Shown here one piece after another: positions 5,019 through 27,530 of a stretch of DNA of 28,436 bases (position 1 is its first letter; the number at the start of each line of letters is the position of its first letter). Where the stretch lies: sequence record NZ_CP021969.1, one strand, 5' to 3'. The translations under genes and the position numbers were made by a program. The notes beneath the pieces were generated by a model that was not told the DNA's origin, searched no databases, and saw only the letters and a program-made list of their open reading frames with translations. The stretch comes from a plasmid.

Positions 5019-7229
5019 TTATTTTGGCTCTAATTTCAATGTCATAGCATTGATGGCAACAATTACAGTCGAAAGTGACATCAAGACGGCAGCGACTGCT
5101 GGACTTAATGTTATGCCAATTGGTGCTAGTATTCCTGCAGCTATTGGGATCGCGATAAAGTTATACCCTGCTCCCCAAACAAGATTTTCTTTCATCTTAC
5201 GTGTGGTCTTCTGAGCCAACTCGATAAAGGATTCAATGTCGCCAGGGTCTGACTGTGTCAAGATGACATCGGCTGAATCCAATGCTACTTGAGTTCCGGC
5301 ACCAATAGCTATACCAACGTCTGCTAGTGCAAGAGACGGTGCATCGTTGACCCCGTCACCGACCATGATAACTTTCTTTTCTTCTGCTTTAAGTTTTTCA
5401 ACTAATTCATATTTGTCTTGAGGAGATTGATTAGCTAGATAATCAATACCTAAAATTTCTGCAGCCCCTTGAGCCGCTTTTTCATTGTCACCCGTTGCCA
5501 TAATCGGCTGAATCTTGTTCTTTTTAAGGGCTTGTATTAAGGCTTTACTTGTCGGTTTTAATTCATCCCCTAAAGCTACAGCACCGATTGCTTCGTCGTT
5601 TTCTACTAAGACACTGAGGGTTGATCCTTTTGGAATATCCATATCCAGATTACGTCCATATGCTTTTTGACTGATTAATTGATAACGATGTCCGTTAGCT
5701 TGACCTTCTACACCAGCGCCAGAAATAACATCAATCGAATCAAAACTTACTGGACGTATCCCTTGATGTTCTGCGTAACTAATAATTGACTGAGCGATAG
5801 GGTGACTAGATCCACCTTCGATACCTGACAATAAGGCAACGATTTCATCTTTCGTATATTTATCATTAAGGAGTTCAACATCTAATACTTTAAACTCACC
5901 AGTTGTTAAAGTTCCAGTTTTATCTAAAACCATAACATCTGCGTTTGTAGTCAACTCCAAAGCGTCCCGGTCCTTCACTAATAATCCCCGACTGGCCCCT
6001 AAGCTGGTACTACGAGCAGTCACCAATGGAATAGCCAGACCCAGGGCATGCGGACAAGCAATAACTAATGTGGTGACTGTAAAAATAACTGCCGTTGGTA
6101 CATCAGCTATAACCATCCATATGACAAGGGCAATAAGAGCTACAATAACCGCAATATAAAAGAGCCATCCTGCAACTTTTTGTGCAAGATTTTCTGTTCG
6201 AGAATGTTGGCTTTGAGCTTGACTGATTAATGTCTGAACCTGAGAAATGAAGGACTTATCGCCCGTCTGCTTTATTTCCACATAGAGGACTCCGCCACCA
6301 TTGGTTGATCCACCGATGACCTCATCTCCAGGATTTTTTTCAATTGGTTTCGATTCCCCAGTCACAAGCGCTTCGTTTACACGTGATTCGCCACGCTGGA
6401 TCGTTCCATCTGCTGGAACATTTTCTCCGGCTTGAACACGAATCAAATCACCTACTTGCAAGTCAGCAACTGGACGAGTCTCAATCGAATCGTCTTCTAA
6501 AACAACATGAGCATCTTTCGGCACCAACTCAGCCAATGCTTTTTGCGCGTCCCCTGCTTCACCCAATGCCTTCATTTCAATCCAGTGTCCTAATAACATG
6601 ATTAAAATTAACGTTGTAAACTCAAAGAAGAAGTCCATGACATGTTCTCCGGTCACATATCGAGCGGCCACTGCGTAAACACTATAGGTATAAGAAACCG
6701 TTATTCCCAAAGTAATCAAGGACATCATGCCTGGAGCTTTTGAATTAAACTCATCTTTCGCACCCATGAAGAATGGTTTTCCGCCAAAAATGTATAGAAT
6801 TGTTGCCAATACAGCTGCTACAACGTCTGCATAAGGAAAGATAATTTGGAAAGGCAACTGAATATCCATCAAAGGAGTAATGAGTAAGATTGCAATTCCT
6901 AATGGGAGTGACTTCAAGAAAATCTCCTTAAAGCTACCGTGATGGTGGTGGGCATGCCCTCCCATTGCGCCATGATCCATTTCACTGTGATCCATCGCAT
7001 TATGATTCATCTTGCTGTGATCCATCTGACTATGTTCCATTTCATTATGGTCGTGTTTTGAGTGTTCCATGTCGCCGTGATGGTGGTGGGCATGCCCTCT
7101 CATTGCGCAATGATCCATCGCACTATGATCCATCTGACTATGTTCCATTTCATTATGGTCGTGTTTTGAGTGTTCCATGTCGCCGTGATTATGATGACTA
7201 TGTGACGAATGTTTTTTGTTATTCCTCAT
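5019..7229 (-). CDS. copB: Copper-translocating P1B-type ATPase (CopB/TcrB-like; His-rich N-terminus, CPH motif), 736 aa
   Basis: TGES (ALVTGESKP), CPH (VIACPHALG), DKTGTLT, GDGVNDAP motifs; N-terminal repeats rich in His/Met/Asp (HDHNEMEHSQMDHS). Confidence 0.95.
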   Translation of the reverse strand: MRNNKKHSSHSHHNHGDMEHSKHDHNEMEHSQMDHSAMDHCAMRGHAHHHHGDMEHSKHDHNEMEHSQMDHSKMNHNAMDHSEMDHGAMGGHAHHHHGSFKEIFLKSLPLGIAILLITPLMDIQLPFQIIFPYADVVAAVLATILYIFGGKPFFMGAKDEFNSKAPGMMSLITLGITVSYTYSVYAVAARYVTGEHVMDFFFEFTTLILIMLLGHWIEMKALGEAGDAQKALAELVPKDAHVVLEDDSIETRPVADLQVGDLIRVQAGENVPADGTIQRGESRVNEALVTGESKPIEKNPGDEVIGGSTNGGGVLYVEIKQTGDKSFISQVQTLISQAQSQHSRTENLAQKVAGWLFYIAVIVALIALVIWMVIADVPTAVIFTVTTLVIACPHALGLAIPLVTARSTSLGASRGLLVKDRDALELTTNADVMVLDKTGTLTTGEFKVLDVELLNDKYTKDEIVALLSGIEGGSSHPIAQSIISYAEHQGIRPVSFDSIDVISGAGVEGQANGHRYQLISQKAYGRNLDMDIPKGSTLSVLVENDEAIGAVALGDELKPTSKALIQALKKNKIQPIMATGDNEKAAQGAAEILGIDYLANQSPQDKYELVEKLKAEEKKVIMVGDGVNDAPSLALADVGIAIGAGTQVALDSADVILTQSDPGDIESFIELAQKTTRKMKENLVWGAGYNFIAIPIAAGILAPIGITLSPAVAAVLMSLSTVIVAINAMTLKLEPK
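6936..7196. repeat. In-frame tandem duplication (units of about 138 and 108 nt) encoding the His-rich metal-binding N-terminus of CopB
   Basis: GTGATGGTGGTGGGCATGCCCTC... recurs at 6939 and 7076; the protein shows GDMEHSKHDHNEMEHSQMDHS...GHAHHHH twice. Confidence 0.7.
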
Positions 7230-8733: not shown

Positions 8734-9312
8734 CTATTTACCAAAACGCCACCACTTTTTAGGTTTAGGTTGTGACTCCGGGGTGCTATTTTCAGGTTCC
8801 GGTTGTTTGTCTGACGTCACTTCTTTTTCACCATCATCATGCGGTGCCATCGTTAAGGCTTTCAAGTCCTTAATTTCTGCCTTGTATTCTTCGAGCAGTT
8901 GTTTGTCCTGTAAGGCTAGCCGTTGTTGTTGGTCTAATAAATTTTGCATTTGGTTCAATTGCTTAAAGTGTTGTGATTTAGTTTCTTTTAAATCTTCTAT
9001 TTGTGCATTCTGATACTTAATAATGTCATTTAAGTAGTTAATATCTGAATATTTTAGGTTGGCGTTTTCAAAGTTTTCGGTTTTTGATTCTGGTTGTTGA
9101 TATGTGTTTTCGGTTTTCGATTTATGGTTGTCGATTCCAGACGAAAACATTGTTCTTATAGCCTTTTGTCCGTTTTCGTTAACCAAAAACCGGTTCCCGT
9201 TTTTTGAAAACCATTGTTTTCGTTCGCTATCCGAAACTTTTTTGTTAATTGCAGTCTTACTAACTCCTAACTCATCAGCGAGTTCTCGAATTGTTTTTAA
9301 ATTTTCACTCAT
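8734..9312 (-). CDS. repB: Replication-associated protein RepB-like (N-terminal HTH, coiled-coil/DUF536-like C-terminus), 192 aa
   Basis: MSENLKTIRELADELGVSKTAINKK HTH; Q/E/K-rich coiled coil; start ATG overlaps the last 8 nt of repA (translational coupling), as in pUCL287-family replicons. Confidence 0.65.
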   Translation of the reverse strand: MSENLKTIRELADELGVSKTAINKKVSDSERKQWFSKNGNRFLVNENGQKAIRTMFSSGIDNHKSKTENTYQQPESKTENFENANLKYSDINYLNDIIKYQNAQIEDLKETKSQHFKQLNQMQNLLDQQQRLALQDKQLLEEYKAEIKDLKALTMAPHDDGEKEVTSDKQPEPENSTPESQPKPKKWWRFGK

Positions 9313-10459
9313 GATCTATATCCTGCCTTTTAACGATTGGTAGATACTGTTCAATCGATTTTTTAAGATACTTAGCAATATTCTTTTTCGAATAGTCATC
9401 TTGTTTGTCTCTGATATAGGCTAAGTGTTCTTTCACGCCCTTTAAACCACGTGACTCTTTTAATTCGTCATAAAGTGGATAAACATTTTTCTGTAACCCT
9501 GACAAAATAGTAGTATCCGTTAAATCAATATATGACAATAAAAACTGCTCCATAAGTAACTTTGTATAGGGACTTTTTATTGCCTTAACAGTCAACATAT
9601 CTTCTGTTTCTTCTTGACGGATCTTGCCCTCGATATAAACGGGATCATCTAGCTTGTAACTAATATCATCTGCCACTTGGTTTTTAGTGATATGAAAGAC
9701 AATACTCTCAATGCTGCGTCCTTTTTTTACTTTTTCATACGTAACATTAAAGCTGGTATGGTTTGTGATTTCTTTAATCGGATCTTTTAATACTCTTCTT
9801 TCAAAATCAGTAAACTTTTTATATTCACTCACCGTATCGGTCGTGTCGCGCAATTCCCGAATAGTGATTATCGGATTACGGTAACTTTCCACTTGCTCTT
9901 CTCTTCGCCCACCTTTAACGCTGTAATGCTCATATTGGTTGTAATTCATTGATAACCAACGGTACAAAATGATTGCATACTTGCTATTCAATTCAGAAAT
10001 TTCTGATAAGGCATGTTGCGTAAAATTGGTTTTGAGATTGATTAAATAAGGCATGATTTCGGGGCTAAATCGAATTAATACCTCATCATGATAATCAGTC
10101 CATTCCACATAAGGGATTGGCACAATACTAACGAATTTAAAACCTTTATCTTGTTCTTTTTTAATCTGAAAAAAAGCCTGTTTTTGCATTTTTTCAATTG
10201 CTTCTTTAAAACGACTATGTTTATTGCTATCATCCACGTTAAAAAAAGCAAATAACTCTTGCTTGGATAAATAAACTGTCTGGTCTTTCGGTGGATTTTC
10301 TGTATCAATTAAAGAAACAGCTAATTCAAACATTTTAAGCGGTGTTTTATCCATTTTGGCAATCGACGTGATTAGGCTATTATGTTCAACTACTTTTCGT
10401 TTTGATAATTCATTCAAGGTCTGTACCTGCCTTGTCTTTGATTCTGTTATAATAGACAT
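9305..10459 (-). CDS. repA: Theta-type replication initiator RepA (Rep_3 family, pUCL287-like), 384 aa
   Basis: N-terminus TLNELSKRKVVEHNSLITSIAKMDKTPLKMFELAVS typical of Rep_3 initiators; located immediately downstream of iterons. Confidence 0.9.
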   Translation of the reverse strand: MSIITESKTRQVQTLNELSKRKVVEHNSLITSIAKMDKTPLKMFELAVSLIDTENPPKDQTVYLSKQELFAFFNVDDSNKHSRFKEAIEKMQKQAFFQIKKEQDKGFKFVSIVPIPYVEWTDYHDEVLIRFSPEIMPYLINLKTNFTQHALSEISELNSKYAIILYRWLSMNYNQYEHYSVKGGRREEQVESYRNPIITIRELRDTTDTVSEYKKFTDFERRVLKDPIKEITNHTSFNVTYEKVKKGRSIESIVFHITKNQVADDISYKLDDPVYIEGKIRQEETEDMLTVKAIKSPYTKLLMEQFLLSYIDLTDTTILSGLQKNVYPLYDELKESRGLKGVKEHLAYIRDKQDDYSKKNIAKYLKKSIEQYLPIVKRQDIDHE

Positions 10460-10571
10460 ATAAATACGCTCCTTTAGGCGTGTTGTTGGATAAGCATAAA
10501 GAAAAACTTTTAGTCGGGAATTTCTTTATGCTTTTATTATAACATTATATAGCGACAAAATATTTTAAACA

Positions 10572-12289: not shown

Positions 12290-12500
12290 GGCTCTGCGAG
12301 GCGTGTCATCGACAAGCGATGCCAGTAGCGTTTCCCCTTCCTGCTGGGGAAACTGCTATTTTACAGCGCCTATTATCCGGCTTGTAAAACCTCCGGCGGG
12401 TCACGCCGTGACAGGGCAATTTATCATTGCAGGATCACCTTCAGTGAGAGCATGTCATGCAGAACGCTACCCGCGCGGGGCAAGCTGGTGTCAGCTTAAC
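12290..12500. other. GC-rich (roughly 55% by eye vs about 35% surroundings) highly structured non-coding island; candidate ssoA-like single-strand origin or structured RNA
   Basis: Hairpins TTTCCCC-7nt-GGGGAAA, GTCAC-3nt-GTGAC, CCGG-12nt-CCGG, GCTG-4nt-CAGC; TAGCGT hexamer (CS-6-like) at 12320-12325; no RBS-preceded ORF. Confidence 0.3.
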
Positions 12501-12539
12501 CACAATAAAATAATCTGTAAACGTAAGTGTATAATAACA

Positions 12540-12620
12540 AAAAAATTGTAGTGGACTATCGCAATTAATAGGTGTTATACAATAAAAGCAAACAAAAAGG
12601 CACCCTTAAGGTGCCCACAT
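12540..12620 (+). ncRNA. Candidate antitoxin antisense RNA (RNA II-like), convergent with the Fst-like toxin mRNA and sharing its terminator
   Basis: TGTATAAT -10-like element at 12528-12535; ends at shared hairpin 12599-12615 plus T-run; AATAGGTGTTATACAAT (12567-12583) is repeated as AATATAGTGTTATAATG (12807-12823) in the toxin 5' leader. Confidence 0.3.
12599..12620. terminator. Bidirectional terminator GGCACC-CTTAA-GGTGCC flanked by A/T runs
   Basis: Seen directly, 10 nt beyond the toxin stop codon. Confidence 0.5.
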
Positions 12621-12624
12621 TATT

Positions 12625-12729
12625 TTAACGATCATTAAGATCATCAAAATAACGTTTAATTGCGAACGTCACAACAGCAACACAGATTGCGTTAAACAAT
12701 TGTGTAAGTTCTTGAAAAAAGTAAAACAT
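12625..12729 (-). CDS. Fst-like type I toxin peptide, 34 aa (MFYFFQELTQLFNAICVAVVTFAIKRYFDDLNDR)
   Basis: Perfect RBS AAGGAGG 9 nt upstream of ATG; single hydrophobic helix followed by a charged DDLNDR tail, as in Fst/Ldr-family toxins; identical and intact in copy 2 (26829..26933). Below ORF-track size cutoff. Confidence 0.55.
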   Translation of the reverse strand: MFYFFQELTQLFNAICVAVVTFAIKRYFDDLNDR

Positions 12730-13186
12730 GGAGTCTAAACCTCCTTGCCGTTGCAGTATAGTAGGAAACAACAGCTTTTTAAGTATATCATGTTTTGAAA
12801 TACCAATAATATAGTGTTATAATGTTAATAGAAGAAAGTACATGGAGACTAACCTCTCTAGTAAAAAGGGCTAGTGCGTAGGAACACCAGCTCTTTTTGT
12901 TTGTCTTTTTTGAAGCAAGTTTCCTTTCAGGGCAAGACAGTGTATAATTATAAACAATAACTGCCATGAAACAGCTCTGCTGTTTCAAAGGCTTGGGCCA
13001 GTACGCTGGGCAAGCCTGGTGGCCCACTTTAAAATACAGTGACGCTGATAGTATGATGGCTAGACTGTTATTTTGACAATTAAAGGCGCTTCAAAAAATT
13101 TCTTTAACCCCCAAATCACTAATAGGGGGGTTAAATTTACAAAAAAGCCAACAGGCAAACAACCCTCATGCTTACGGGGAGTCGGG

Positions 13187-19199: not shown

Positions 19200-21426
19200 T
19201 CATGTGCCAAATAACTGTTTATTTGGCTCTAATTTCAATGTCATAGCATTGATGGCAACAATTACAGTCGAAAGTGACATCAAGACGGCAGCGACTGCTG
19301 GACTTAATGTTATGCCAATTGGTGCTAGTATTCCTGCAGCTATTGGGATCGCGATAAAGTTATACCCTGCTCCCCAAACAAGATTTTCTTTCATCTTACG
19401 TGTGGTCTTCTGAGCCAACTCGATAAAGGATTCAATGTCGCCAGGGTCTGACTGTGTCAAGATGACATCGGCTGAATCCAATGCTACTTGAGTTCCGGCA
19501 CCAATAGCTATACCAACGTCTGCTAGTGCAAGAGACGGTGCATCGTTGACCCCCGTCACCGACCATGATAACTTTCTTTTTCTGCTTTAAGTTTTTCAAC
19601 TAATTCATATTTGTCTTGAGAGATTGATTAGCTAGATAATCAATACCTAAAATTTCTGCAGCCCCTTGAGCCGCTTTTTCATGTCACCGTTGCCATAATC
19701 GGCTGAATCTTGTTCTTTTTAAGGGCTTGTATTAAGGCTTTACTTGTCGGTTTTAATTCATCCCCTAAAAGCTACAGCACCGATTGCTTCGTCGTTTTCT
19801 ACTAAGACACTGAGGGTTGATCCTTTTGGAATATCCATATCCAGATTACCCATATGCTTTTTGACTGATTAATTGATAACGATGTCCGTTAGCTTGACCT
19901 TCTACACCAGCGCCAGAAATAACATCGAATCAAAACTTACTGGACGTATCCCTTGATGTTCTGCGTAACTAATAATTGACTGAGCGATAGGGTGACTAGA
20001 TCCACCTTCGATACCTGACAATAAGGCAACGATTTCATCTTTCGTATATTTATCATTAAGGAGTTCAACATCTAATACTTTAAACTCACCAGTTGTTAAA
20101 GTTCCAGTTTTATCTAAAACCATAACATCTGCGTTTGTAGTCAACTCCAAAGCGTCCCGGTCCTTCACTAATAATCCCCGACTGGCCCCTAAGCTGGTAC
20201 TACGAGCAGTCACCAATGGAATAGCCAGACCCAGGGCATGCGGACAAGCAATAACTAATGTGGTGACTGTAAAAATAACTGCCGTTGGTACATCAGCTAT
20301 AACCATCCATATGACAAGGGCAATAAGAGCTACAATAACCGCAATATAAAAGAGCCATCCTGCAACTTTTTGTGCAAGATTTTCTGTTCGAGAATGTTGG
20401 CTTTGAGCTTGACTGATTAATGTCTGAACCTGAGAAATGAAGGACTTATCGCCCGTCTGCTTTATTTCCACATAGAGGACTCCGCCACCATTGGTTGACT
20501 CCACCGATGACCTCATCTCCAGGATTTTTTTTCAATTGGTTTCGATTCCCCAGTCACAAGCGCTTCGTTTACACGTGATTCGCCACGCTGGATCGTTCCA
20601 TCTGCTGGAACATCTTTCTCCGGCTTGAACACGAATCAAATCACCTACTTGCAAGTCAGCAACTGGACGAGTCTCAATCGAATCGTCTTCTAAAACAACA
20701 TGAGCATCTTTCGGCACCAAACTCAGCCCAATGCTTTTTTGCGCGTCCCCTGCTTCACCCAATGCCTTCATTTCAATCCAGTGTCCTAATAACATGATTA
20801 AAATTAACGTTGGTAAACTCAAAGAAGAAGTCCATGACATGTTCTCCGGTCACATATCGAGCGGCCACTGCGTAAACACTATAGGTATAAGAAACCGTTA
20901 TTCCCAAAGTAATCAAGGACATCATGCCTGGAGCTTTTGAATTAAACTCATCTTTCGCACCCATGAAGAATGGTTTTTCCGCCAAAAATGTATAGAATTG
21001 TTGCCAATACAGCTGCTACAACGTCTGCATAAGGAAAGATAATTTGGAAAGGCAACTGAATATCCATCAAAGGAGTAATGAGTAAGATTGCAATTCCTAA
21101 TGGAGTGACTTCAAGAAAATCTCCTTAAAGCTACCGTGATGGTGGTGGGCATGCCCTCCCATTGCGCCATGATCCATTTCACTGTGATCCATCGCATTAT
21201 GATTCATCTTGCTGTGATCCATCTGACTATGTTCCATTTCATTATGGTCGTGTTTTGAGTGTTCCATGTCGCCGTGATGGTGGTGGGCATGCCCTCTCAT
21301 TGCGCAATGATCCATCGCACTATGATCCATCTGACTATGTTCCATTTCATTATGGTCGTGTTTTGAGTGTTCCATGTCGCCGTGATTATGATGACTATGT
21401 GACGAATGTTTTTTGTTATTCCTCAT
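19200..21426 (-). pseudogene. copB: Copy 2 of copB, broken into at least 5 fragments
   Basis: Fragments 19200..19559, 19902..20516, 20532..20840, 20773..20985, 21097..21426 reproduce copy-1 CopB segments, including GDGVNDAP, DKTGT and His-rich repeats. Confidence 0.85.
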
Positions 21427-23510: not shown

Positions 23511-24660
23511 GATCTATATCCTGCCTTTTAACGATTGGTAGATACTGTTCAATCGATTTTTTAAGATACTTAGCAATATTCTTTTTCGAATAGTCCATCT
23601 TGTTTGTCTCTGATATAGGCTAAGTGTTCTTTCACGCCCTTTAAACCACGTGACTCTTTTAATTCGTCATAAAGTGGATAAACATTTTTCTGTAACCCTG
23701 ACAAAATAGTAGTATCCGTTAAATCAATATATGACAATAAAAACTGCTCCATAAGTAACTTTGTATAGGGACTTTTTATTGCCTTAACAGTCAACATATC
23801 TTCTGTTTCTTCTTGACGGATCTTGCCCTCGATATAAACGGGATCATCTAGCTTGTAACTAATATCATCTGCCACTTGGTTTTTAGTGATATGAAAGACA
23901 ATACTCTCAATGCTGCGTCCTTTTTTTACTTTTTCATACGTAACATTAAAGCTGGTATGGTTTGTGATTTCTTTAATCGGATCTTTTAATACTCTTCTTT
24001 CAAAATCAGTAAACTTTTTATATTCACTCACCGTATCGGTCGTGTCGCGCAATTCCCGAATAGTGATTATCGGATTACGGTAACTTTCCACTTGCTCTTC
24101 TCTTCGCCCACCTTTAACGCTGTAATGCTCATATTGGTTGTAATTCATTGATAACCAACGGTACAAAATGATTGCATACTTGCTATTCAATTCAGAAATT
24201 TCTGATAAGGCATGTTGCGTAAAATTGGTTTTGAGATTGATTAAATAAGGCATGATTTCGGGGCTAAATCGAATTAATACCTCATCATGATAATCAGTCC
24301 ATTCCACATAAGGGATTGGCACAATACTAACGAATTTAAAACCTTTATCTTGTTCTTTTTTAATCTGAAAAAAAGCCTGTTTTTGCATTTTTTCAATTGC
24401 TTCTTTAAAAACGACTATGTTTATTGCTATCATCCACGTTAAAAAAAGCAAATAACTCTTGCTTGGATAAATAAACTGTCTGGTCTTTCGGTGGATTTTC
24501 TGTATCAATTAAAGAAACAGCTAATTCAAACATTTTAAGCGGTGTTTTAATCCATTTTGGCAATCGACGTGATTAGGCTATTATGTTCAACTACTTTTCG
24601 TTTTGATAATTCATTCAAGGTCTGTACCTGCCTTGTCTTTGATTCTGTTATAATAGACAT
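23503..24660 (-). pseudogene. repA: Copy 2 of repA; frameshifts near both ends
   Basis: 312-aa ORF matches copy-1 internal residues; N- and C-termini diverge by frame. Confidence 0.8.
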
Positions 24661-24772
24661 ATAAATACGCTCCTTTAGGCGTGTTGTTGGATAAGCATAA
24701 AGAAAAACTTTTAGTCGGGAATTTCTTTATGCTTTTATTATAACATTATATAGCGACAAAATATTTTAAACA

Positions 24773-26475: not shown

Positions 26476-26828
26476 AAAATTCTATTTTGGACAGGCTCTG
26501 CGAGGCGTGTCATCGACAAGCGATGCCAGTAGCGTTTCCCCTTCCTGCTGGGGAAACTGCTATTTTACAGCGCCTATTATCCGGCTTGTAAAACCTCCGG
26601 CGGGTCACGCCGTGACAGGGCAATTTATCATTGCAGGATCACCTTCAGTGAGAGCATGTCATGCAGAACGCTACCCGCGCGGGGCAAGCTGGTGTCAGCT
26701 TAACCACAATAAAATAATCTGTAAACGTAAGTGTATAATAACAAAAAAATTGTAGTGGACTATCGCAATTAATAGGTGTTATACAATAAAAGCAAACAAA
26801 AAGGCACCCTTAAGGTGCCCACATTATT

Positions 26829-26933
26829 TTAACGATCATTAAGATCATCAAAATAACGTTTAATTGCGAACGTCACAACAGCAACACAGATTGCGTTAAA
26901 CAATTGTGTAAGTTCTTGAAAAAAGTAAAACAT
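26829..26933 (-). CDS. Fst-like toxin copy 2; intact
   Basis: Identical 105-nt ORF and RBS. Confidence 0.5.
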   Translation of the reverse strand: MFYFFQELTQLFNAICVAVVTFAIKRYFDDLNDR

Positions 26934-27530
26934 GGAGTCTAAACCTCCTTGCCGTTGCAGTATAGTAGGAAACAACAGCTTTTTAAGTATATCATGTTTT
27001 GAAATACCAATAATATAGTGTTATAATGTTAATAGAAGAAAGTACATGGAGACTAACCTCTCTAGTAAAAAGGGCTAGTGCGTAGGAACACCAGCTCTTT
27101 TTGTTTGTCTTTTTTGAAGCAAGTTTCCTTTCAGGGCAAGACAGTGTATAATTATAAACAATAACTGCCATGAAACAGCTCTGCTGTTTCAAAGGCTTGG
27201 GCCAGTACGCTGGGCAAGCCTGGTGGCCCACTTTAAAATACAGTGACGCTGATAGTATGATGGCTAGACTGTTATTTTTGACAATTAAAGGCGCTTCAAA
27301 AAATTTCTTTAACCCCCAAATCACTAATAGGGGGGTTAAATTTACAAAAAAGCCAACAGGCAAACAACCCTCATGCTTACGGGGAGTCGGGTTACAGCGA
27401 AAAAATATTCGTGTAAAAATCGCTGTAATAATGAAAATATGATGATAAAAATCGCCTGTAAGATGGCATTTTTTATTATATAAATCATTTTTAGGTTGCT
27501 ATCAAGCTATTTACGATTAAGGAGGATTAT

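Follow-up and report, generated by a model that had tools for sequence, protein, structure and literature searches.

A probable type I toxin-antitoxin module with a divergently encoded antitoxin RNA on plasmids of Leuconostoc and related bacteria

We analysed a stretch of plasmid DNA (NZ_CP021969.1, positions 1-28436; hereafter the window, 28,436 nt in length), in which a minus-strand gene for a 34-residue hydrophobic peptide stands back-to-back with a candidate small RNA (sRNA) gene that largely repeats the 5' end of the peptide gene and is read from the other strand. On the evidence set out below, the two probably form a type I toxin-antitoxin (TA) module, and for convenience we call the peptide the toxin throughout. 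A first-pass annotation of the same DNA, made from the letters alone, had proposed an unannotated type I locus of the Fst family with a convergent antitoxin RNA; our analysis supports the gene and its toxin-like hallmarks, and places the probable antitoxin elsewhere.

A conserved 34-codon gene on the minus strand

The 105-nt open reading frame (ORF) to which the first-pass annotation drew attention is present on the minus strand at 12729-12625, with its ATG at 12729 and its TAA at 12627-12625, and its 34 codons (12625-12729) encode the product MFYFFQELTQLFNAICVAVVTFAIKRYFDDLNDR. The ribosome binding site described for it is also present, as a Shine-Dalgarno (SD) sequence AAGGAGG at 12746-12740, 10 nt upstream of the ATG. 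The ORF is conserved in related plasmids: every full-length homologue has exactly 34 codons, without indels, and variable sites are distributed 17/10/26 over the three codon positions, with ratios of non-synonymous to synonymous variation (pN/pS) of 0.16-0.61. On this pattern of variation, the ORF is a real, conserved gene under purifying selection.

AlphaFold predicts the peptide to be one continuous helix over residues 2-33, with a mean confidence (pLDDT) of 90. Residues 8-24 are hydrophobic (mean Kyte-Doolittle (KD) value 2.0) and the tail KRYFDDLNDR is charged, giving a layout of hydrophobic core, KR and acidic tail along a single predicted helix. Across family members the series K/Q-R/K-Y/W-F-D-D is invariant or nearly so, and E7 and N13, on the polar face of the helix, are invariant. 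The predicted helix and the charged tail agree with the Fst-like architecture that had been claimed, but membership of the Fst family does not follow from it: the resemblance in charged tail and boundary aromatic is architectural only, no member of the family has a Pro or Gly within residues 1-30, and unlike Fst the peptide lacks the essential PXXXG motif. A search with Fst_toxin profiles gave no match at E≤10, and hhalign against Fst and PepA1 returned a probability of 17%.

The family appears to be uncatalogued. Pfam and NCBIfam scans of four members at E≤10 gave no match other than a chance one to NADH dehydrogenase; a PDB profile search with the peptide gave chance matches only, none to Fst; and a scan of viral contigs found no match to the family. 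A profile search of 1.84 billion representative proteins recovered the toxin family alone, in two clusters at 50% identity. Database entries for the peptide are labelled only “hypothetical” or “uncharacterized” (e.g. UniRef100_B1N0D2), the PLSDB gene tables list nothing at the ORF, and our literature searches found no match to the peptide motif KRYFDD and no paper describing the locus.

Predicted structure of the toxin transcript

Upstream of the gene, an extended -10 box (TGATATACT, 12782-12790, minus strand) with a weak -35 would serve as the toxin promoter; the form TGnTATACT or TGnTATAAT, with variable n, is kept in all loci. The 5' end of the mRNA would then lie near 12775, giving a highly structured predicted transcript of ~183 nt with a 5' untranslated region (UTR) of ~46 nt. 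An alternative promoter, TTAAAA-16-TATACT (12782-12755), was rejected, as its -10 is not conserved in loci L004 and L005.

We folded the toxin mRNA of eight sequence types, considering both minimum free energy (MFE) folds and a consensus structure. A 5' hairpin (GCUGUUGU / GCAACGGC, 12747-12775, minus strand) is found in the folds and in the consensus, and its loop of 13 nt, UUCCUACUAUACU, contains the heptamer UUCCUAC at 12767-12761. The SD sequence itself lies in a small hairpin (12730-12746, minus strand), in which GGAG (12744-12741) pairs with CUCC (12733-12730); in the consensus fold it pairs with the pyrimidine-rich codons 3-5 in all types (alignment columns 31-36/56-61), so that intramolecular sequestration of the SD is predicted for 8/8 sequence types as well as for the consensus. 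A long hairpin, evident as an inverted repeat at 12617-12655 (minus strand), takes in codons 26-34 together with the stop codon and the first part of the 3' UTR; it forms in 7/8 MFE folds (L024 differs) and in the consensus, and may have a role in mRNA stability. Because the tail codons RYFDDLNDR build this hairpin, peptide sequence in the acidic tail and RNA structure may each place constraints on the other.

The transcript would end at an intrinsic terminator (GGGCACCTTAAGGGTGCC followed by TTTTTG, 12593-12616, minus strand), whose hairpin is conserved with compensatory changes (alignment columns 161-182) and which forms the right-hand end of the module. This terminator had been read as bidirectional; the GC-rich hairpin at 12598-12616 is indeed flagged as terminator-like on both strands, but only on the minus strand is it followed by a good T-run, that on the plus strand (CACATTATTT) being poor. 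Taken as a whole, the architecture of the mRNA (5' hairpin, SD helix, mid-ORF hairpin, 3' hairpin and terminator) is conserved, with 12 compensatory pairs. A 15-nt inverted repeat (12554-12568 / 12656-12670) was considered as a pairing element and rejected, since RNAs transcribed through it from opposite strands would be identical rather than complementary; it is not conserved beyond the flank of the window type.

A candidate divergent small RNA complementary to the toxin mRNA

Back-to-back with the toxin promoter, and overlapping it, lies the best promoter-like site within a 1.2-kb region: TTGAAA, a spacer of 17 nt and TATAAT preceded by TG, on the plus strand at 12795-12823 (11/12 with TG). 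The sRNA-strand box TGnTA(T/C)AAT is kept in all seven sequence types of the subfamily that carries the sRNA upstream, and the extended -10 boxes of both toxin and sRNA are conserved in all lineages, with the middle base variable. From this promoter an sRNA of ~70 nt would run over 12830-12899 on the plus strand to its own terminator, a hairpin with T-run at 12868-12899 (loop CGUAGGAA) that makes up the left-hand end of the module and in which 6 pairs show compensatory changes. The predicted starts, 12775 on the minus strand and 12830 on the plus strand, lie ~55 nt apart and point outwards, leaving no overlap between sRNA and toxin mRNA. Independent calls were made at other loci, of both promoter and terminator in L024 and L006 and of the terminator in L005. 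Rfam searches at the gathering score found no known antitoxin RNA, and at E≤10 gave chance-level matches only in 12300-13100.

The repeat search identifies the sRNA gene as an imperfect direct repeat of the toxin 5' region (12713-12775 vs 12830-12892), the two copies being 114 nt apart. As the upstream copy is read on the other strand, the sRNA and the toxin mRNA are complementary over ~63 nt despite not overlapping. The 5' portion of the sRNA (12830-12863, plus strand), an imperfect direct repeat of 12713-12750, is complementary to the SD, the AUG and codons 2-6, while GUAGGAA (12878-12884) in its terminator loop is complementary to the loop of the toxin 5' hairpin, which would provide a second contact of 7 nt between the loops. 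The contiguous complementary block starts, in most types, ~8 nt downstream of the -10 hexamer, at the position expected for the start of transcription; this reading was made by eye, the automatic distance from the -10 to the first pair being noisy because of spurious terminal pairs. A reading of the upstream copy as a mini-ORF, of 7-8 codons in some types, was rejected because L005, L024 and L033 have no ATG there.

The predicted duplexes are stronger than expected by chance. The whole sRNA against the first 63 nt of the toxin mRNA gives -53.2 kcal/mol (z=-5.7), and sRNA nt 1-34 against the SD, AUG and codons 2-6 give -33.0 kcal/mol, a value equalled by 0/500 shuffles.

Co-variation between the two predicted RNAs

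At each locus the sRNA copy mirrors the translation initiation region of its own toxin, and both contacts co-vary across seven sequence types. In a 6x6 matrix of duplex energies, the cognate pair is the best in every row and every column, at -31 to -34 kcal/mol, against -11 to -24 kcal/mol for non-cognate duplexes between distinct lineages. The seventh type, L033 from a metagenome, has GCACTTTTATTCC in both partners. The loop heptamer behaves similarly, reading TTCCTAC in most loci, TTCCCAC in L004 and CTCCAAC in L024, and being identical within each locus pair. When toxin 5' regions and the reverse complements of the sRNAs were aligned jointly, the register was poor and the signal diluted (own-locus identity 0.48 vs 0.39 across loci), and we rely here on duplex energies instead.

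The paired segment also changes faster than the rest of the gene. Codons 2-6 diverge about twice as fast as codons 7-34 (0.47 vs 0.23 differences per site), with N-termini of MFYFF, MIYFF, MAIFF, MVALI, MSLLF and MALLF by lineage. This rapidly diverging segment, which comprises the SD spacer and codons 2-6, is tracked by the sRNA, resulting in at least 4-5 specificity types that cross-pair poorly. One genome, Leuconostoc inhae DSM 15101, carries two modules of different sequence type on separate contigs (L010 and L022), an observation that bears on whether the specificity types are orthogonal.

Several points weigh against reading these elements as a membrane-active toxin and its antisense regulator. 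Both transcription starts are predictions, and the toxin -35 is poor. The related types of the window, L008 and L003 cross-pair at -25 to -29 kcal/mol, and since the types are few and partly related, the independent co-variation events number only ~4-6. Gene conversion between the repeat copies could hold them alike without selection on pairing. In the window type, the stem of the sRNA terminator has an A.C mismatch on the plus strand where the minus strand has a G.U pair, so that this hairpin may also, or instead, be a minus-strand insulator. Finally, the helix contains the polar residues Q6, E7, T9, Q10 and N13, which makes insertion into the membrane less than certain.

Module boundaries, distribution and a sister subfamily

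Twenty loci, turned so that the toxin reads the same way in all, were aligned; they lie in at least 5 different flanking contexts, among them a MobV/oriT (origin of transfer) side, a restriction enzyme, insertion sequence (IS) elements and, for L024, a 2-Mb chromosomal contig. The block common to all loci extends from an A-run and GAGCTGGTGTTCCTACGCACTAGCCC upstream of the toxin, at the sRNA terminator, to ~20 nt past the toxin terminator. By this alignment, the conserved module is a segment of ~310 bp at 12593-12899. The interval originally assigned to the locus (12528-12830) includes the toxin, but the element that fits an antitoxin, at 12795-12899, falls mostly outside it.

A 481-bp region around the gene occurs in 65 PLSDB plasmids, 61 of them mobilizable, with 52 in Leuconostoc, 7 in Enterococcus, 4 in Weissella, and one each in Lactobacillus and Pediococcus. 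By tblastn, the peptide itself is found in 58 PLSDB plasmids (55/58 mobilizable), at 17 loci in GTDB species representatives and at 12 metagenome loci. Hosts include dozens of plasmids of food-fermentation Leuconostoc and Weissella, together with some of Enterococcus faecalis. A contig of 21.5 kb from goat jejunum that was binned as 'Candidatus Saccharibacteria' (JAFRKN010000005.1, L016) also has the module, with a peptide 94% identical; most likely this is a plasmid contig of Lactobacillales that was placed in the wrong bin.

Remnants of the module recur with one and the same junction, consisting of toxin codons 19-34, the terminator and a downstream flank of the window type (L023 at 1201-1251; L034-L037 at 601-651; PLSDB hits H90-H97). 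All lack the promoter, the 5' half of the toxin and the sRNA, and they are found on several plasmids and on a scaffold of Weissella paramesenteroides. The junction lies behind a 175-codon ORF whose product we tentatively take to be Asp23/Gls24-like.

A sister subfamily on Leuconostoc and Lactococcus plasmids (L006, L007 and L025) encodes a 32-residue homologue, MLFLDEMRELANAIFVALVAILLQKWFDDHNH (hhalign 96.8%, E=3e-10). Here the antisense copy lies downstream of the toxin and is convergent with it, with an 11/12 promoter and a terminator separate from that of the toxin (L006, 1400-1760). Both contacts are nevertheless retained, with loops GUGAUAG / CUAUCAC, and where L025 has TTAAC instead of TAGAC in the translation initiation region, its sRNA copy has changed to match. 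The pairing design thus stays fixed although the sRNA gene is free to change its place, which argues for action in trans by base-pairing. The heptamer GTGATAG also occurs within the terminator loop of the sister toxin itself, and the sister layout could be intermediate between the upstream-sRNA layout and the classical par layout.

Plasmid context

The window contains a plasmid unit of ~14.2 kb twice, head-to-tail. Its halves align at 99.4% identity with 0 mismatches and 65 gap openings, and several ORFs that are whole in one half are disrupted in the other (e.g. a P-type ATPase gene at 5019-7229, against fragments at 19200-21426). Such a double-written unit is typical of a circular plasmid that was assembled twice round, or of a dimer, from indel-prone long reads. 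A consequence of this duplication is a second, identical copy of the module at 26797-27103, with the toxin ORF at 26829-26933 (minus) and the sRNA at 27034-27103 (plus); the locus recurs at +14204 and the two copies are identical over 601 nt, which bears out the statement in the first-pass annotation that both are free of indels.

The plasmid encodes a Rep3/RepB theta replicon, a MobV (Mob_Pre) relaxase, a P-type ATPase with a CopY-like repressor, and metabolic genes. Adjoining the Rep3/RepB gene (9305-10459) is ctRNA_pND324 (RF00238, 76 bits; 10459-10544 and 24660-24745), the antisense RNA that controls the copy number of the theta replicon. The region in which the oriT of a MobV system would be expected, between the start of the relaxase gene (12241) and the TA module, contains a strong hairpin (GTTTCCCC...GGGGAAAC, 12330-12353). 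The module is flanked on both sides by a 19-nt direct repeat (AGTGTATAATAACAAAAAA / AGTGTATAATTATAAACAA, 12526-12544 / 12939-12957; 84% identical), which is seen in flanks of the window type only and could be a trace of insertion, or chance.

Comparison with known type I systems

The locus has the general features of a type I system, namely a small hydrophobic peptide encoded on a short, structured predicted mRNA, and an adjacent complementary sRNA, as judged from promoter, terminator and co-variation. Its closest parallels in design are par of Enterococcus faecalis pAD1 (Fst/RNA II) and Lpt/RNA II of Lactobacillus, which are likewise plasmid-borne, with a one-helix toxin of ~30 residues and a charged C-terminal tail. 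They also share an sRNA of ~65-75 nt and complementarity to the translation initiation region that arises from direct repeats read in opposite directions (Weaver 2020, PMC7472228; Folli 2017, PMC5608710), an sRNA terminator loop engaged in a loop-loop contact, and an SD sequestered by an intramolecular stem-loop, which is predicted here. The hallmarks of Fst/par systems are convergent promoters, a shared bidirectional terminator, the direct repeats DRa and DRb, a 5' stem-loop (5'-SL), and a toxin with PXXXG, Trp and a charged tail (Weaver 2020, PMC7472228). At the present locus, in contrast, the promoters are divergent and back-to-back, the two RNAs share no terminator and do not overlap, one long repeat takes the place of DRa and DRb, and the kissing partner is the loop of the mRNA 5' hairpin rather than that of the mRNA terminator.

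In gene order the module instead resembles TisB/IstR-1, ShoB/OhsC, ZorO/OrzO and DinQ/AgrB, in which the sRNA gene lies 5' of the toxin, divergent and non-overlapping, and pairs through a separate complementary segment (Wen & Fozo 2014, PMC4147584; T1TAdb, PMC8594479). In that group, pairing takes place inside long 5' UTRs at a distance from the initiation site, which divergent antitoxins leave uncovered (Wen & Fozo 2014, PMC4147584), whereas here the 5' UTR is ~46 nt and the SD, AUG and first codons are covered. The group is reported from Gram-negative bacteria only and has no sequence relationship to the present toxin family. In T1TAdb (2021, PMC8594479), a 5'-located, non-overlapping antisense RNA is listed only for ShoB/OhsC, TisB/IstR-1, Zor/Orz and DinQ/AgrB, all Gram-negative, and the Gram-positive families are all 3'-overlapping; Wen & Fozo 2014 (PMC4147584) similarly state that all Gram-positive type I pairs then described overlap at their 3' ends.

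Two Gram-positive systems share further properties with the locus. In SprA1/SprA1AS of Staphylococcus aureus, translation is blocked through an sRNA domain outside the overlap that pairs with the ribosome-binding region (T1TAdb, PMC8594479); however, SprA1AS is convergent and overlaps the 3' end of its mRNA, and PepA1 is an Fst-family peptide with PXXXG. TxpA/RatA (Hol_Tox, PF16935) likewise has a small single-helix toxin of Firmicutes, but TxpA carries PF16935 while our family has no Pfam match (hhalign probability 0.1%), and RatA overlaps the toxin 3' end while the conserved sRNA here does not. Fozo et al. 2010 give two TxpA-family candidates each for L. citreum KM20 and L. mesenteroides ATCC 8293, among which the 34-residue peptide may be.

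Interpretation and alternative explanations

We consider it likely that the locus represents a previously undescribed type I TA family with a par-like mode of action and a divergent layout. The mechanism that we propose is modelled, by analogy, on par of pAD1. Both RNAs would be transcribed, and before any pairing with the sRNA the SD would be held in an intramolecular helix of the toxin mRNA. First contact would be made by the sRNA terminator loop GUAGGAA, kissing the toxin 5' hairpin loop UUCCUAC, after which pairing would spread from the 5' end of the sRNA over codons 2-6, the AUG and the SD. The resulting duplex would block ribosome binding and would probably create a substrate for RNase III. 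After loss of the plasmid, the structured mRNA would outlive the sRNA, so that the peptide would be made and damage the membrane, and the module would thereby bring about post-segregational killing.

The first-pass annotation had envisaged a different arrangement, on the model of par(pAD1) and Fst, in which an RNA II-like antitoxin of ~75 nt (about 12542-12620) starts from a plus-strand promoter-like element, TGTATAAT, at 12528-12535, runs to the shared terminator (12598-12616) and uses a 17-nt near-direct repeat to pair with the toxin leader. The box exists, its terminator is a palindrome flagged on both strands, and a plus-strand transcript that reached it would be fully complementary to the toxin 3' end. 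However, we regard this arrangement as very improbable. The box lies outside the conserved module and is found only in loci that share the MobV-side flank, it lacks a -35 and for that reason went uncalled in the promoter scan, and it has a twin at 12941 within the 19-nt flanking repeat. Together with the whole region more than ~20 nt past the terminator, it is absent from eight loci (L003, L004, L005, L011, L021, L022, L024 and L033) that keep the toxin and the upstream sRNA. The two copies of the supposed repeat (12567-12583 / 12808-12824) are identical at 6/17 positions when aligned without gaps and were not reported by the repeat search; the only exact match that they share is the 8-mer GTGTTATA, and 17% of dinucleotide shuffles also share an 8-mer. 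The second copy is in fact the extended -10 box (TGTTATAAT) of the plus-strand promoter, and since it lies upstream of the toxin promoter box at 12790-12782 it is not in the toxin leader. Outside the shared terminator, the convergent RNA pairs with the leader at chance level (-14.2 kcal/mol, z=+0.7; with a longer leader, z=+0.1), to which the poor plus-strand T-run and the lack of an Rfam antitoxin match may be added. The underlying logic of par, an sRNA made from a direct repeat on the opposite strand, very likely applies, but to a different RNA in a different place: that reading had the right gene and the right kind of regulation, and was mistaken as to the side of the antitoxin and the name of the family.

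Two other accounts keep the elements described here and give them other roles. The peptide might be a small membrane protein with a different function, in stress response, membrane modulation or plasmid competition for instance, with the upstream sRNA tuning its translation. That the toxicity of the peptide is itself a prediction leaves room for this, as do the polar helix face with its invariant E7 and N13, the member on a chromosomal contig (L024) and the frequent absence of an addiction role from chromosomal type I loci (Weaver 2020, PMC7472228). We nevertheless think it unlikely, as the module is nearly always plasmid-borne and moves as a self-contained unit between unrelated flanks, in the manner of selfish stabilisation modules; as its weak toxin promoter, strong sRNA promoter, sequestered SD and structured mRNA are the design of proven type I toxins; and as the remnants without sRNA always lack the toxin 5' half, which is expected if an unguarded toxin is not tolerated. 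Less likely still, and to about the same degree as the convergent arrangement, is that the upstream element has no function and is the fossil of a partial tandem duplication of the toxin 5' region, held similar by gene conversion, with the hairpin at 12870-12891 acting only as a minus-strand insulator or terminator. This hairpin is slightly better on the minus strand (G.U vs A.C) and is flagged there by the scan, and the copies are direct repeats. Against a fossil, coding capacity has been lost (no conserved ATG or ORF in L005, L024 and L033) while complementarity has been kept over the SD, AUG, codons 2-6 and the loop; an outward extended -10 box is conserved ~7-8 nt from the start of the complementary block; and in the sister subfamily the copy lies elsewhere and in the other orientation, yet is still antisense, with an 11/12 promoter and its own terminator.

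On the type I reading that we prefer, a further idea can be put forward tentatively. The antitoxin gene may be a portable, decayed copy of the toxin 5' end, placed either upstream and divergent or downstream and convergent and acting in trans through both contacts. The rapid divergence of the paired segment, tracked by the sRNA, is what one would expect if co-resident or competing plasmids were selected to escape each other's antitoxins, in a form of RNA-level incompatibility or anti-addiction arms race.

Type I modules are difficult to detect, and guesses about their antitoxins often rely on analogy, which, as this locus shows, can mislead. If confirmed, the module would represent a new toxin family without a Pfam, NCBIfam or Rfam model and, as far as the accessible literature goes (reviews to 2021), the first 5'-divergent, non-overlapping antitoxin in Gram-positive bacteria. 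Since it is carried by plasmids of fermentation Leuconostoc and Weissella and by some of Enterococcus faecalis, it would be relevant to the plasmid stability of starter cultures and to vector design, and its co-varying specificity types and two gene layouts would offer a ready-made system in which to follow the evolution of RNA antitoxin specificity.

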